From an uncultured Candidatus Saccharibacteria bacterium (GTDB taxonomy: Bacteria > Patescibacteriota > Minisyncoccia > Phycocordibacterales > UBA12088): a stretch of 64,000 nucleotides of DNA. Positions 1 to 60,124 of the stretch are shown here, piece after piece. The first letter of the stretch is position 1; each line of letters begins with the position of its first letter. The notes below the pieces were generated by a model. That model was not told where the DNA came from. It saw only the letters and a list, made by a program, of their open reading frames with translations, and ran no database searches. Location of the stretch: NCBI GenBank assembly GCA_964567265.1, contig CAZMLK010000001.1:262574-326573 (forward strand), in the 5' to 3' direction. Both the position numbers and the translations under genes were made by a program.

Positions 1-110
1 GTTTAAATAATAAAAAGAATAATAATCCTTGTGAGAAGCTATCCGCTGTAGAAGAGTGCAGCAAGCATCGGAAATAACGTACTGAATCGAATTGGCTTCT
101 AGGCTTCTCT

Positions 111-599
111 ATGGCAGAAACTAAAAAAAAAGTACAACTCAAGGTCGGAGACGTATTCGAAATACGTTTATCTGATGGCACCTATGCGTATGGTCAGTAC
201 TACGTACAGGATAAAGGGGGTGATGTCGGAAGGTTCTTTTCTTATAGAGGAAAAGAAAAAATTTCACCTGAAGAGGTCGTAAAATATCCATTGTTATTCC
301 CTCCGGTACATGTGGGGATACGTGCATCACTTAATGATGGAGTATGGGTGGTTGTAGGGAATGTACCAATAACAGATTTTGAAGAGCCCATGTTCCGAAG
401 TGAATTTTCTCTTACCCCGGGAAAGTTTGGAAAGTGGTATATCACACAGGGTGATAAGGTTGAAGAGGTGGGGTATGTGCTCCCAGAAAAATATAAAAAA
501 CTCGAACGCAAAGGCGTTTGGCCAGGTGACTGGGTAGATGAGCGTATTGAGAATGGAGGAAAAATACCAGAAAGATTGAAATGGATGGGCCAGTCCTGA
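111..599 (+). CDS. hypothetical protein, possible immunity protein of a displaced polymorphic-toxin cassette
   Basis: 162-aa ORF with ATG at 111 in an AT-rich block upstream of an orphan Rhs toxin tip. No recognisable catalytic motif. The function is inferred from context only. Confidence 0.45.
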   Translation: MAETKKKVQLKVGDVFEIRLSDGTYAYGQYYVQDKGGDVGRFFSYRGKEKISPEEVVKYPLLFPPVHVGIRASLNDGVWVVVGNVPITDFEEPMFRSEFSLTPGKFGKWYITQGDKVEEVGYVLPEKYKKLERKGVWPGDWVDERIENGGKIPERLKWMGQS

Positions 600-626
600 T
601 TGAAAGCAATAAAATAATAGTACAAT

Positions 627-896
627 ATGGAAATGGAATTTTTCTTGTATTTTTCTACAGAATCTAAAGCAGAGCAGGCGAAAAAAGAAATTCTAAAAGT
701 ATATCCGCAAGCTGTGATTGAAATTAGAAATGCTGCAGAAGGGGATCAGATTCTTTGTCTTACACGATTCACCGTCAATGGAGGTGCTCCAAGTGCGCTG
801 GATGAGATTGATGCGCGCCTTGAAAATATTTCACATCAATTTGGCGGTGACTATGACGGTTACGGTACTTCCCTAGAGGCAAATATTTCGGAATAA
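627..896 (+). CDS. hypothetical small protein, possible orphan immunity gene
   Basis: 89-aa ORF ending in TAA at 894-896, directly abutting the start of GC-rich Rhs-derived sequence at 897. Confidence 0.35.
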   Translation: MEMEFFLYFSTESKAEQAKKEILKVYPQAVIEIRNAAEGDQILCLTRFTVNGGAPSALDEIDARLENISHQFGGDYDGYGTSLEANISE

Positions 897-1026
897 ACCC
901 ACCTCCCAGACCAGTCTCTTCAAGGATGCCGTCACCTCCACCCTCGGCGCAGCGAGCTACGTCATCAGCACGACCACCGGCACGTATACCGACACCTACA
1001 CCGGCGGAGCCTTCCGCGACTGGTGC

Positions 1027-2028
1027 ATGGGCGCAGCCGCCTTCAAGCCGGCAAGCACCACTTCAAGTGCCACAACAACCACCCGCTATCTCCACACCGA
1101 CCACCTCGGCGGAACCCACTTCGTCTCTGATGCCACTGGTGCAGTCATCGAAGCCATCGACTACTACCCGTATGGACAGAATAGGGTTGATACCAAAGTA
1201 GGTACCTACACCGGAGAGAAGCGGAAGTACATTGGAGAAGAGTTTGACAGTGCGACGAATCTCTCGTACCTTAACGCGAGGTATTACAACGGGGCACGGG
1301 GGAACTTCCTGAGTGAGGATCCAGTATTCCTCGGCACTGAACAAAATCTTGAGGATCCTCAGGCTCTCAATTCCTATGCGTATGCGAATGGGAATCCGAT
1401 AACCAAAAGTGACCCTACTGGAAAGAGCTGGCAAACCTTTGGGCAAGGTGCCGCAAGTCCCTTTGTTTACGCTTATAATCATCCCTTACAGACAGCTGGA
1501 GTATTTGCATTGACCACTGTGGCAGTACTGGCAGCGCCTGTTACGGTCGCCGTGATAGGTGCTGCTGCTGGAGGTTATGCAATAGGAACAGCTGGCTTCA
1601 GTGCCTACACCGCTCCAAATGCAGATGCAAGAGATTACTATATTGGGCAGGCTCTCACATTCACTGGACTAACTGCTGTTGGAATCAAGGGGAGTTCCTC
1701 AGTAAGTGCTACAAAGTCAACATCACGGCAAACATCAGGCAGCCCAGATTTTATCGTAGATGTAAACGGACAAGTATTTCCTGTTCCCAAGGGGGCAACA
1801 GGACCAGTACCCGTTATAAATAAAGCTGGTAAGGTTACTGGCAGTGCATTTACTGGTGGTTCAGGCGGTGAAAATGGACAAGTCACTACGATGAGAATTA
1901 TGGATCCCAACTCAAGTAATCCGACTGGATATATAAAATACACAAATGCCAATAAACAAGGGGTGAATCCGAATACGGGAAAGACTGGCACACCTGCTGA
2001 GACGCATTACCCAGCAAACACTAAGTAA
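1027..2028 (+). CDS. orphan Rhs/YD-repeat C-terminal fragment with a variable toxin tip (no N-terminal Rhs body in the window)
   Basis: The translation carries the Rhs core C-terminal signature: TGTYTDTYTGGAF, RYLHTDHLGGTHFVSDATGAVIEAIDYYPYGQ, ARYYNGARGNFLSEDP and DPTGK. A hydrophobic stretch and an unrelated C-terminal domain follow. The frame is open from 877 and sequence homologous to Rhs cores starts at about 897. The first in-frame ATG is at 1027. Confidence 0.75.
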   Translation: MGAAAFKPASTTSSATTTTRYLHTDHLGGTHFVSDATGAVIEAIDYYPYGQNRVDTKVGTYTGEKRKYIGEEFDSATNLSYLNARYYNGARGNFLSEDPVFLGTEQNLEDPQALNSYAYANGNPITKSDPTGKSWQTFGQGAASPFVYAYNHPLQTAGVFALTTVAVLAAPVTVAVIGAAAGGYAIGTAGFSAYTAPNADARDYYIGQALTFTGLTAVGIKGSSSVSATKSTSRQTSGSPDFIVDVNGQVFPVPKGATGPVPVINKAGKVTGSAFTGGSGGENGQVTTMRIMDPNSSNPTGYIKYTNANKQGVNPNTGKTGTPAETHYPANTK

Positions 2029-2033
2029 CACTC

Positions 2034-2378
2034 ATGAATACCTTTGAACATGTCCTTAAGGGGAAAAAAGTAGAAGTTATCAACGATAAGCCAGAAAAAT
2101 ACGAAGACGGAACTGTCGGCAATGATTGGGGTCTGGGTTTCGAGGGAGATTGGGGCTTGGCAATCTATGCCAACAGGGTAATAAAAAATGCCGAGTCGCT
2201 GAAAGATTTCGTTGGTGAAAAACTTACTTCAATCCAAGAAACAGAGAATGCAGTTGTTTTCGACTTCACTCATGAAAAAAAAATAATAATTTCTTTGGAA
2301 GAAAAAGATTGGAACGGCCCGGAGATAATGATGCTACAACGAGATAATCAGATATATGTATGGGGTGTCGGTGAATAG
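2034..2378 (+). CDS. putative cognate immunity protein for the Rhs C-terminal toxin
   Basis: 114-aa acidic ORF starting 6 nt after the toxin stop, which is the typical toxin-immunity arrangement. It is AT-rich like the toxin tip. Confidence 0.55.
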   Translation: MNTFEHVLKGKKVEVINDKPEKYEDGTVGNDWGLGFEGDWGLAIYANRVIKNAESLKDFVGEKLTSIQETENAVVFDFTHEKKIIISLEEKDWNGPEIMMLQRDNQIYVWGVGE

Positions 2379-2447
2379 CCGGTAGCTGTAGTCAGAGATA
2401 CCTCCAATACTCTTTAAAAGGCAGGGCTCAATATTCTCCATATAATT

Positions 2448-2639
2448 ATGAAAAAGATACCAATAACGCTTCTGCCGATCGTTCTAATTTTGATCGTTCT
2501 CCTCCTGTTCACTTTCTACGTGCCGCAGAGCGGGGATTTGATTTCTAGTAAAGGTGACTATTACTTGGGGCAAGCGCTCGGCCTCCTAACAGTGCTTTCA
2601 CTCCTCTTGGATTTTATGAGGTTCCAGAATCGCAAGTAG
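2448..2639 (+). CDS. small membrane protein with two predicted TM helices
   Basis: 63-aa ORF with two hydrophobic segments, located in the AT-rich cassette region. Confidence 0.35.
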   Translation: MKKIPITLLPIVLILIVLLLFTFYVPQSGDLISSKGDYYLGQALGLLTVLSLLLDFMRFQNRK

Positions 2640-2683
2640 AAACCAGCTGTAGTCTGTCGCCGGGGACACATCCATTTGAAACT

Positions 2684-2908
2684 ATGAAAGAAGAAATACT
2701 AATGCCGCTTGATGAAGAGGGAATCACCGTCTATCGACCCGTTTTGGCATTAAGGATTAATGATCACATTTATAAAATTCTTGAAGATACCTTAAATAAC
2801 CAAAATGATGAAGTTTGGGCCTTTAAGCCAGGTGAAGTCGTAGAGGTTGTTGAAAAAGAATTCGAGAATAAAAAATCATTGGTTGCCGTAAATTTGTACA
2901 AAGAATAA
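2684..2908 (+). CDS. hypothetical small protein
   Basis: 74-aa ORF in the cassette region with the same orientation as its neighbours. Confidence 0.35.
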   Translation: MKEEILMPLDEEGITVYRPVLALRINDHIYKILEDTLNNQNDEVWAFKPGEVVEVVEKEFENKKSLVAVNLYKE

Positions 2909-2953
2909 TGTATTTAACGCAAAGTCAGTCGTAATTAAACTGAATTCAATTCT

Positions 2954-3214
2954 ATGAACGACGGAAATAAACTTACACCGGATGAAGCATATAAGGCTAT
3001 GTTTTTCTTTCTAGATCGATGGTGGAAAGAAGGAGGACAGAAAGAAGATAACATTGCAAATATACTCAGTAGTATGTCTCTTTTAGCAGATGGTTCTTCT
3101 GCGGACGGCGCTATGATGCAAGACTGGAAAAATAGTGTCAAAAAGGTTCTCGAGTATCGAGGAAGGGTGGAAACGGGGGAAGAACCATGGATGTTGAATT
3201 TGACTAATAATTAG
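2954..3214 (+). CDS. hypothetical small protein, possible orphan immunity gene
   Basis: 86-aa ORF. GGGGACACRTCCA-like junction motifs flank this gene and the previous one. Confidence 0.4.
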   Translation: MNDGNKLTPDEAYKAMFFFLDRWWKEGGQKEDNIANILSSMSLLADGSSADGAMMQDWKNSVKKVLEYRGRVETGEEPWMLNLTNN

Positions 3215-3382
3215 GTCTTAGAATGGTATTGTCTTGTGGCGGCGTAGGGGAGTAGCGGGGGGACACGTCCAATATTCCTCCAAAATCTGTGGAGTACTAT
3301 TCTCCATCTGTCCGGTAGGGGTGGGACCAACACCACTACTTGCTTTTTTCTGGGCTTGCTGCATAATGTCGCTCATTAAATT

Positions 3383-10291: not shown

Positions 10292-10330
10292 GACGCCCGC
10301 ATGCGAAGCATGCGGGCGTCTTTCTTTTTT
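10292..10330 (+). terminator. rho-independent terminator
   Basis: GACGCCCGCATGC gaa GCATGCGGGCGTC followed by TTTCTTTTTT. Confidence 0.7.
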
Positions 10331-10453
10331 CAATACTCGTGTCCTAATGTGTCATTGTGTAGGGGACAGCCCGCTCTGGCTTCTCCCGTGCCAGAAGTGC
10401 TAGAATAGTCGGACTCCCTGCATTACAATCGTTAATCAATCGAAGACACCACA

Positions 10454-11098
10454 ATGGATACGATGGATACCAAGCCTGAGATTTCGGGTAAGAAGAGCTG
10501 GAAGATGATGTTGAAGGACAAGAAGGTGATGGGCGGGCTTGTGATCGCAGTCGTCATCATCCTGATCGCGCTCCTGTATGTCTTCAAGGCATGCTTCGTT
10601 GCTGCGACCGTGAACGGTTCTCCGATCAGCCGCTGGAGCATCATGAAGGCCGCAGAGAAGCAGGTCGGCGCGCAGATTCTCGAGTCGAAGATCACCGAGA
10701 AGCTCATCAAGACCGAGCTTGCGAAGCAGAAGATTACTGTCGACCAATCTGAAATCGATGCTGAAGTGAAGAAGGTCGAGGACCAGATCACCGCACAGGG
10801 CGGCACGCTCGATCAGGCGCTCGCGCAGCAGGGCATGACCAAGGATCAGTTCATCGACCAGATCAAGGTCCAGAAGGAAGTCGAGAAGCTCCTCATGGAC
10901 AAGGTCGCCGTCTCTGACGAAGACATCACCAAGTACATCGCTGACAACAAGCTCACCGCGCCGGCAGGCATGAGCGCGGACGATATGCGAAAGCAGATCC
11001 GCGACATCATCAAGCAGCAGAAGTTCAGCGCGGCAGCGCAGGAGTGGGTCGCGGGACTCCGCACCAATTCGAAGGTGAATACGTACGTGAAGTTCTAA
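10454..11098 (+). CDS. membrane-anchored SurA N-terminal-domain-like chaperone protein
   Basis: N-terminal TM helix followed by a Lys/Glu-rich coiled domain resembling the SurA_N/PrsA N-terminal region. No PPIase motif is seen. Confidence 0.5.
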   Translation: MDTMDTKPEISGKKSWKMMLKDKKVMGGLVIAVVIILIALLYVFKACFVAATVNGSPISRWSIMKAAEKQVGAQILESKITEKLIKTELAKQKITVDQSEIDAEVKKVEDQITAQGGTLDQALAQQGMTKDQFIDQIKVQKEVEKLLMDKVAVSDEDITKYIADNKLTAPAGMSADDMRKQIRDIIKQQKFSAAAQEWVAGLRTNSKVNTYVKF

Positions 11099-11123
11099 TC
11101 GCAATTTCCGGATAGTCGAGAAA

Positions 11124-11155
11124 CCCCGCGCCTTCGGCGCGGGGTTTCGTTTTCA
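11124..11155 (+). terminator. rho-independent terminator
   Basis: CCCCGCGCC ttcg GGCGCGGGG followed by TTTCGTTTTC. Confidence 0.6.
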
Positions 11156-11254
11156 AGACCAAGCCTCCTGGCCGAAACTTGACAAATAAAATAATTACTC
11201 TATTGTTTTTTGGAAATCCATGTTCCCATTGCAACGTGAAAGGAACCAATCGGC

Positions 11255-60051: not shown

Positions 60052-60124
60052 GGGCCCGTAGCTTAGTTGGTAGAGCACCTCATTTGCAATGAGGGGGTCA
60101 GGAGTTCGAATCTCCTCGGGTCCA
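60052..60124 (+). tRNA. tRNA-Ala (anticodon UGC)
   Basis: Cloverleaf folded by hand. Acceptor stem GGGCCCG/CGGGUCC with a G3:U70 wobble pair, D-arm GCUU..GAGC, anticodon loop UUUGCAA, T-arm AGGAG-UUCGAAU-CUCCU and discriminator A73. CCA is not encoded. Confidence 0.9.

Follow-up and report, generated by a model that had tools for sequence, protein, structure and literature searches.

What does a lone Rhs-type C-terminal tip encode when the rest of the Rhs protein is missing, and how would it act? This question is raised by a 64,000-nucleotide (nt) stretch of DNA from an uncultured Candidatus Saccharibacteria bacterium (assembly GCA_964567265.1, contig CAZMLK010000001.1, positions 262,574 to 326,573 of the forward strand), hereafter the window. 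An open reading frame (ORF) at positions 1027-2028 (+ strand), 333 amino acids (aa) long when counted from the first ATG and ending with a stop codon at 2026-2028, carries a DPTGK motif, a hydrophobic stretch and a C-terminal domain to which a sequence-only reading could assign no toxin class. The answer that we favour, and consider somewhat probable as a whole, is that the ORF is an orphan cassette of an Rhs toxin C-terminus (rhs-CT), consisting of the end of the Rhs core, a pre-toxin module and a 97-aa toxin domain and followed by its own immunity gene, and that the toxin is of the nuclease type and acts in the cytoplasm. Direct support exists for the architecture with its module boundaries, the size of the families, the placement of the toxin domain strictly at the C-terminus, the variety of its carriers, the co-conservation of toxin and immunity gene, the complementarity of their charges and the modularity of the pre-domain.

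The frame in question (frame 1, + strand) is open from position 877, directly after another gene, and runs intact for 383 codons to the stop of the ORF. Its part at 1087-1425 is the C-terminal end of an Rhs core (YLHTDHLGG ... ARYYNG ... SEDP ... SDPTGK) and matches the Rhs_assc_core profile TIGR03696 over positions 1-75 of 76 (E 1.8e-17; 63.6 bits against a curated cutoff of 32.5 bits). The YLHTDHLGG motif is located at 1087-1113 and the demarcation/cleavage motif DPTGK at 1411-1425 (residues 129-133 of the 333), and ARYYNG, SEDPVF and SDPTGK are all present. We take ARYY../..DP../DPxG to be the Arg/Asp/Asp context of an aspartyl autoprotease, as in Tc/Rhs structures; for this ORF, cleavage is a prediction. 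Thus, a toxin tip behind an Rhs demarcation motif, as proposed from the sequence, was borne out, and all elements described in that reading were found in frame 1 of the + strand. Only the last ~110 aa of the core are retained. Across the 371-aa open frame no RHS_repeat or other Pfam domain was matched, and there are no YD repeats, PAAR or trafficking domain. No signal peptide was found at the N-terminus (MGAAAFKPASTTSS...) and no Shine-Dalgarno sequence ahead of the ATG at 1027; a promoter and terminator scan gave matches at chance level only.

For the 195 residues past DPTGK, the Pfam (2025 copy) and NCBIfam (2026) libraries yielded no match even at E ≤ 1. These residues fall into a conserved pre-toxin module of 91 aa (1426-1698), a Ser/Thr-rich linker (1699-1734; VSATKSTSRQTS), which was read from the sequence, and, at the C-terminus, a toxin domain of 97 aa (1735-2025). 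The similarity of a related protein described below stops at residue 224. The earlier claim that the C-terminal domain is unclassified therefore stands with respect to Pfam and NCBIfam; the sequence quoted for it is present, but its length of ~110 aa was wrong, since the conserved unit comprises 97 aa.

The toxin domain belongs to a large unannotated family, all-beta and basic. A word-indexed search returned 22 close relatives, and a profile (A1) built from 20 trimmed domains retrieved, among 1.84 billion 50%-identity cluster representatives, 715 clusters at E ≤ 1e-3, including 106 at E ≤ 1e-30. The domain ends no more than 23 aa from the C-terminus in 159 of 160 proteins. Its carriers comprise proteins with RHS repeats, Tc-toxin-like proteins (SpvB+TcdB_toxin_midN+RHS), Rhs types with DUF6443 or DUF6531, proteins with PT-HINT and CdiA-like proteins (TPS+Fil_haemagg). 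Loci from Proteobacteria include Stenotrophomonas, Pseudomonas, Cupriavidus, Paraburkholderia, Variovorax and Shewanella; the domain was also found in Bacteroidota, Verrucomicrobiota, Planctomycetota, Omnitrophota, Patescibacteria and other phyla, and on plasmids of Leptospira interrogans, L. kirschneri and L. noguchii. In 151 diverse members, the residues Arg54 (99%), Tyr66 (97%), Tyr69 (97%), Asn71 (97%), Gln75 (99%) and Thr84 (96%) are conserved (domain numbering), as are His91 (~98% of ungapped sequences) and a GGxGGxNG loop. The ORF of the window retains every residue that is invariant in the family. A median isoelectric point (pI) of 9.4 and a charge of +3 make the domain basic. No fold or profile match to a ribonuclease (RNase), ADP-ribosyltransferase or deaminase was found for it, and a search of viral folds (BFVD) gave no meaningful match.

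Directly downstream, 6 nt past the toxin stop, begins the ORF at 2034-2378 (+ strand), which encodes an acidic, cytoplasmic protein of 114 aa (pI 4.7). An ORF of 100-122 aa begins between -10 and +15 nt from the toxin stop in almost all of 47 genome loci, and a jackhmmer search started from the window protein joined 41 downstream ORFs of these loci into one family. When a hidden Markov model (HMM) of this family was applied to the 41 loci that contain a complete toxin domain and enough downstream sequence, a member was found directly after the toxin in 40 of them; L014 is the exception, and L022 is cut by a contig end. The Leptospira plasmids show the same pairing. The earlier reading of 2034-2378 as the cognate immunity gene was thus right. 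Members of the immunity family are acidic (median pI 4.6, net charge -7), and a single residue is invariant among them, namely Glu in a C-terminal GPE(A/I)M motif. No signal peptide was found in the family, and we conclude from this that the target of the toxin is cytoplasmic. Scans of the tip, the immunity protein and neighboring ORFs with Pfam and NCBIfam gave the immunity family no Pfam match above cutoff, only sub-threshold matches to DUF6188; a profile search of the PDB retrieved no relative, and a structure model built from two sequences had a predicted local distance difference test (pLDDT) score of 52, too poor for use. In one locus, from Pseudomonas fragariae (L015), two immunity-family genes stand in tandem after a single toxin (10307-10624 and 10726-11190).

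Both features by which polymorphic toxins are recognized in the framework of Zhang et al. 2012 were therefore found here: the same domain occupies the extreme C-terminus of varied trafficking and repeat architectures, and a cognate immunity gene lies directly downstream and co-varies with it. The system itself is a standard Rhs polymorphic toxin cassette, while its toxin and immunity families are uncharacterized and have no entry among the toxin and Imm families catalogued in Pfam. Neither these two families nor the pre-toxin module are present in Pfam or NCBIfam, and we found no paper that describes them.

Several existing names had to be compared with the toxin domain. The protein of the Leptospira interrogans plasmid NZ_CP043878.1 (locus L050, 3704-4635), which carries the toxin domain and is accompanied by the same immunity family, is listed in RefSeq as "polymorphic toxin type 10 domain-containing protein", after Ntox10 (PF15520). 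The Ntox10 match in this protein covers profile positions 1-85 of 193 only and falls in an N-terminal linker upstream of the toxin domain; neither the window ORF (at E ≤ 1) nor the toxin domain itself is matched. Since only the linker is matched, the "type 10" name misnames the domain. Tox-REHH/STox_30 (bioRxiv 10.64898/2026.09.22.753552) was considered and rejected, being longer and requiring R46, H52, E53, H102 and H121, whereas our family has one conserved His. The Leptospira-specific PT8 was rejected because peptides derived from the primers reported for it, in the same paper as PT7, do not match.

The only structural neighbor of note for the toxin domain is PT7 itself. Structure 8owu contains PT7(Bc) of Bacillus cereus with its immunity protein PIM7; PT7 is described as a non-specific, Mg-dependent deoxyribonuclease (DNase), sensitive to ethylenediaminetetraacetic acid (EDTA), with a "novel fold" and toxic to bacteria and yeast, PIM7 inserts its Asp17 into the catalytic pocket, and H73A, D37A and H47A are among the mutants scored +++ in the primer table of the paper (bioRxiv 10.1101/2021.10.19.465003). 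PT7 peptides were rebuilt from the mutagenesis primers of the supplement, the full chain was then read from the PDB with an X-padded query, and PIM7 was identified downstream of a PT7 homologue. By eye, ..TIRMRID37PP.. of PT7 resembles ..TTMR54IMD57P.. of the toxin domain, ..TK44Y45.. resembles ..IK68Y69.., and the C-terminal ..SPDAH73IPYKM resembles ..PAETH91YPANTK, with H-[FYI]-P placed five residues from the end in both. As can be seen, PT7 His73 is aligned with the nearly invariant His91. Divergent members of the family come nearer to PT7, with a G.TV..KDP.AHIPL pattern (P0162, TGKTVSNKDPAAHIPL, versus PT7, NGNIVDRKSPDAHIPY). In a Bacillus cereus locus (L057, 1-2299), the gene that directly precedes a stand-alone PT7 homologue and PIM7 encodes a non-ribosomal peptide synthetase of 2,532 aa and is not an LXG gene.

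Being the sole structural neighbor, PT7 points to nucleic acid as the target, and so do the alignment of an essential His, the opposite charges of basic toxin and acidic inhibitor and the range of carriers; since antibacterial (CdiA, Rhs) and Tc-like carriers both occur, the target should be universal. A number of results weigh against this assignment. A PDB search with the toxin profile came back empty. Comparison with PT7 by hhalign gave P = 0.03-0.06, confidence being confined to the final 7-9 columns, and hmmsearch between the toxin family and PT7 was insignificant in both directions (best 9.4 bits). In an extended alignment, PT7 His47 and His49 sit in an insertion that is missing from our family, which contains no invariant acidic residue (at position 57, 65% of members have Asp and 30% Asn), so that the PT7-type metal site is not conserved. 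The immunity family, finally, has no detectable relation to PIM7 (hhalign P = 0.053). There are further differences: PT7 Asp37 is only partly matched, corresponding to Met56/Asp57; our family has ~20 extra N-terminal residues and the GGxGGxNG loop; PT7 is near neutral (pI 6.2) whereas the family is basic; and PT7, either stand-alone or on LXG carriers, is found chiefly in Firmicutes, the family chiefly in Gram-negative phyla on Rhs, CdiA or Tc carriers. No confident profile hit to a characterized toxin family was thus obtained, the link to PT7 being at hhalign P = 0.03 and the catalytic His pair of PT7 being absent. The toxin domain is probably a distant relative of PT7 with a remodelled active site and not a member of the PT7 family.

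These differences leave room for a toxin that uses a PT7-like scaffold for something other than DNA cleavage, i.e., a metal-independent RNase, an enzyme modifying nucleotides or nicotinamide adenine dinucleotide (NAD), or a tight-binding inhibitor of an essential conserved target. Such a toxin would be compatible with the conserved set of Arg, Tyr, Tyr, Asn, Gln, Thr, one His and the Gly-rich loop, in which there is neither an invariant acidic residue nor a His pair, unlike the Asp/His metal pocket of PT7, and with an immunity family that differs from PIM7; Tc-like, CdiA and Rhs carriers would require only that the target be common to bacteria and eukaryotes. However, the one notable structural neighbor is a DNase, His91 is aligned with a residue that was mutated in PT7, basic toxins with acidic immunity proteins are typical of nucleic-acid-directed toxins, and the enzyme classes searched for gave no fold or profile match. 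We therefore regard this alternative as rather doubtful. As to the activity taken by itself, a nuclease of any kind has in our estimate about an even chance, a DNase in particular is possible but falls somewhat short of that, and another activity on the same scaffold is appreciably less likely.

We next turn to the pre-toxin module, which consists of a head (SWQTFGQGAASPFVYAYNHPLQT), a hydrophobic stretch and a polar tail (NADARDYYIGQALTFTGLTAVGIKG). The Gly/Ala-rich stretch noticed past DPTGK in the sequence-only reading is indeed there: it starts 23 residues after DPTGK and comprises 35 residues (AGVFALTTVAVLAAPVTVAVIGAAAGGYAIGTAGF; 1495-1599, + strand), with a maximal Kyte-Doolittle 19-residue mean of 2.39 and values of at least 1.6, about the transmembrane threshold for this measure, over residues 154-186. 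Between the Rhs core end and residue 224, protein P0003 and the window protein are 67% identical (E 3e-43); P0003 then continues into a different C-terminal domain. A metagenome scan with the single module sequence gave no matches; a profile made from the alignment of two sequences was needed and retrieved six loci (L051-L056) that carry the module at 56-72% identity. Such conservation, like the 715 clusters of the C-terminal domain, shows that neither element arose by chance. In L051 and L053, it follows long genuine YD repeats and a DPxG motif. None of the six tips matches the HMM of the toxin family, and they are of at least four different kinds; together with P0003, the module has been seen with at least five other toxin tips. 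The conserved head reads SW.TFGQG.ASPFVYAY.HP.QT and the strongly conserved tail (N/D)AD.RDYY(I/L)GQG..T..LT..GIKG, with the Gly/Ala hydrophobic stretch between them. No match to PT-TG (PF14449), PT-HINT (PF07591) or any other Pfam family was found at E ≤ 1 for positions 1441-2025 or residues 134-236.

Two roles had been offered for the hydrophobic segment, a translocation module and a membrane-targeting toxin; the first is favored and the second is not, as the segment belongs to a separate module that recurs with at least five other tips. CdiA-CT regions consist of two domains, an entry domain and a toxin domain (PMC11630599). Like the CdiA-CT cytoplasm-entry domains described there, the pre-toxin module is placed between the cleavage/demarcation motif, which it follows directly, and the toxin domain; it is shared among different toxins, and these go with cytoplasmic immunity proteins. 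The analogy is functional only: the module is unrelated in sequence, is found in Rhs proteins and not in CdiA, and contains a transmembrane-grade stretch. Given its position after the cleavage motif, the association of one module with many toxins and the cytoplasmic immunity protein, the best reading of the module is that it would serve membrane insertion and entry. Set against this is the observation that a transmembrane-grade segment was found within 150 residues before the domain in only 39 of 137 toxin-family members (28%), often in unrelated sequence, from which it follows that such a module is common but not obligatory for the toxin.

The remaining question about the cassette is why it lacks everything upstream of the core end. 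Orphan rhs-CT/immunity modules are found downstream of the main rhs gene in the Rhs loci of E. coli and Salmonella, and a stretch of core is kept in them for recombination. Since an Rhs shell and a secretion signal are absent and an AT-rich array of immunity genes surrounds the ORF, the latter looks like a displaced orphan rhs-CT cassette lying within this array, beside DNA of host G+C content (GC). The toxin tip, the unclassified domain, the immunity gene and the separate module had all been correctly seen from the sequence; that the gene is a fragment had been missed. In common with the orphan cassettes of E. coli, Salmonella, Dickeya and Serratia (framework of Zhang et al. 2012, PMC3482391), it has a core ending in DPxG, a variable C-terminal tip, an immunity gene directly downstream, an array of further immunity genes and an AT-rich tip on a core of host GC; it differs in that only the last ~110 core residues are present and the main rhs gene is beyond the window. 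The toxin/immunity cassettes (within 1-3300) have GC values of 0.34-0.45, as against 0.556 for the Rhs-core part (897-1425) and 0.567 for the other 59 kb (5000-64000), a mosaic that fits horizontally moving tips joined to a resident core. Two independent short-read assemblies of the same organism (Logan contigs L001 and L002) both break at ~1203, inside the core part, which suggests that the genome holds a further copy of the core sequence and hence at least one more rhs gene.

The array itself is made up of the following genes, all on the + strand. The tail of an ORF that runs off the start of the window (3-77; last 24 codons, frame-3 translation ending in ...LNNKKNNNPCEKLSAVEECSKHRK before the stop) is too short to identify; the upstream main toxin gene may end here, or this may be the end of a toxin matching the gene that follows. 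That gene (111-599; GC 0.42) belongs to the Imm26 immunity family (Pfam PF15428, E 7.5e-11, above cutoff), which has been tied to Tox-URI1 toxins and polyimmunity loci (Zhang et al. 2012, PMC3482391). Back to back with it, and likewise upstream of the toxin fragment, stands a small RraB-like ORF (627-896; Pfam PF06877, E 2.3e-10; GC 0.40), probably a further immunity-type gene of the array. Downstream, ORF74 (2684-2908; 74 aa, GC 0.34) is homologous to a gene of metagenome locus L051 that directly follows a different Rhs toxin tip, and to an ORF of the L010 array, and is for this reason probably an orphan immunity gene. The last of these genes, ORF86 (2954-3214; 86 aa), could not be assigned to a type, with no Pfam match and no relatives among the loci compared.

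Relatives of the window protein do not all conform to the orphan layout. P0012, P0013 and P0022, which are of similar length, have their own signal peptide directly ahead of the core tail, and relatives with signal peptides form tandem arrays after a large YD protein (L010, L015 and L031); both facts call for caution over the orphan reading. The ORF of the window has no such leader. Each of these three loci (L010, 7688-12913; L015, 5571-10306; L031, 270-10300) contains a large YD-repeat gene with one to three genes of ~330-490 aa behind it. Those of L010 and L031 share a common N-terminal stretch, followed by an Rhs core tail with differing tips, and a signal-peptide-like leader is seen in L010 and L015. 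The arrangement points either to mini-Rhs toxins that are secreted independently or to orphan arrays in which a leader was retained.

A cassette without a shell might also be an inert relic, i.e., a decaying recombination fragment that is neither expressed nor reused, so that only the surrounding immunity genes would matter, as acquired protection. The missing Rhs shell and secretion signal, the lack of a recognizable ribosome-binding site or promoter and the stand-alone immunity-type genes all around would agree with this. Decay is, however, at odds with a frame that is intact over 383 codons and keeps all family-invariant toxin residues, with an intact cleavage-motif context and pre-toxin module, and with a cognate immunity gene kept at the canonical spacing of 6 nt. 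We consider the relic explanation unlikely.

Between the immunity gene and ORF74 lies a gene for a two-helix membrane protein of 63 aa (2448-2639, + strand) that resembles the pre-toxin module and whose role could not be assigned. The two were aligned by hhalign over 51 columns with P of 2.6e-5 and a common GDYYLGQ motif; the center of the 63-aa protein (GDLISSKGDYYLGQAL) resembles RDYYIGQAL of the module. Only L053 and L054 have a homologue behind the immunity gene; L051, L052 and L056 lack one. The protein may act as a membrane immunity factor or be a relic copy of the module, or its presence may reflect lineage synteny. The first of these possibilities recalls toxins that act on membranes: the Rhs effector Tse5 has a pore-forming C-terminal domain (PMC11630599), and EsxX is reported to be a glycine-zipper toxin with separate immunity families per compartment (PMC12744356). 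The resemblance of such depolarizing toxins to our tip is confined to a Gly/Ala-rich hydrophobic segment in an Rhs C-terminal region, no sequence similarity being claimed, and here the segment precedes a separate soluble toxin domain with a soluble immunity protein. That the tip carries two warheads, the pre-toxin module being a membrane-depolarizing toxin of the glycine-zipper or ionophore type neutralized by the 63-aa protein and the C-terminal domain being neutralized by the product of 2034-2378, is in our opinion very unlikely, for although the segment is transmembrane-grade with small-xxx-small spacing, the 63-aa protein resembles it, its homologues accompany the same module with other tips in L053 and L054 and precedents exist, this protein is missing from three loci despite 1.4-2.7 kb of downstream sequence, the module always precedes a further toxin domain with its own adjacent immunity-like gene, the stretch is a single one of ~35 residues and not a multi-helix bundle, and hhalign scores among hydrophobic segments are inflated by composition.

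Two further observations were made in the window. Long ORFs overlap the GC-rich core in other frames at 926-1201 (+ strand) and 1063-1482 (- strand); their translations are rich in Pro, Ala and Ser, and they look like high-GC frame artefacts, not genes. A single tRNA gene at 60052-60124 (+ strand) is the sole Rfam match in the window.

For the favored orphan cassette with its nuclease-type toxin, the following course of events can be proposed. The last ~110 core residues would provide both the autoproteolysis context with DPTGK and the homology for recombination into a full-length rhs gene, so that the cassette would be a silent spare, activated once it has recombined into such a gene. After delivery and cleavage at DPTGK, the pre-toxin module would insert into the inner membrane of the target cell and help the toxin domain across. 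In the target cytoplasm, the domain would most likely cut or modify nucleic acid by means of the conserved Arg54, Tyr66, Lys68, Tyr69, Asn71, Gln75, Thr84 and His91. In the producing cell, the invariant Glu of the immunity protein would probably plug the basic active face, much as Asp17 of PIM7 reaches into the pocket of PT7.

A bolder view, which we hold to be quite unlikely in its entirety, is that this is an undescribed, phylum-spanning toxin-immunity pair that reuses the PT7 scaffold with a metal-independent site (Arg/Tyr/Tyr/Asn/Gln/Thr/His and the Gly-rich loop) for a new activity, and that the pre-toxin module and its 63-aa look-alike represent either the first defined inner-membrane entry device of Rhs toxins or a second warhead, aimed at membranes and matched by a membrane immunity factor of its own. 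Both the toxin and the immunity family are large, with 715 clusters of the toxin in many phyla and a presence on plasmids of pathogenic Leptospira, yet neither has a Pfam or NCBIfam name, and defining both would improve annotation. For the question of how Rhs toxins pass the inner membrane of the target, a conserved, swappable, membrane-grade module at the position of the CdiA entry domain offers a testable object. Comparison with PT7, in turn, could reveal how one small scaffold supports different active sites.

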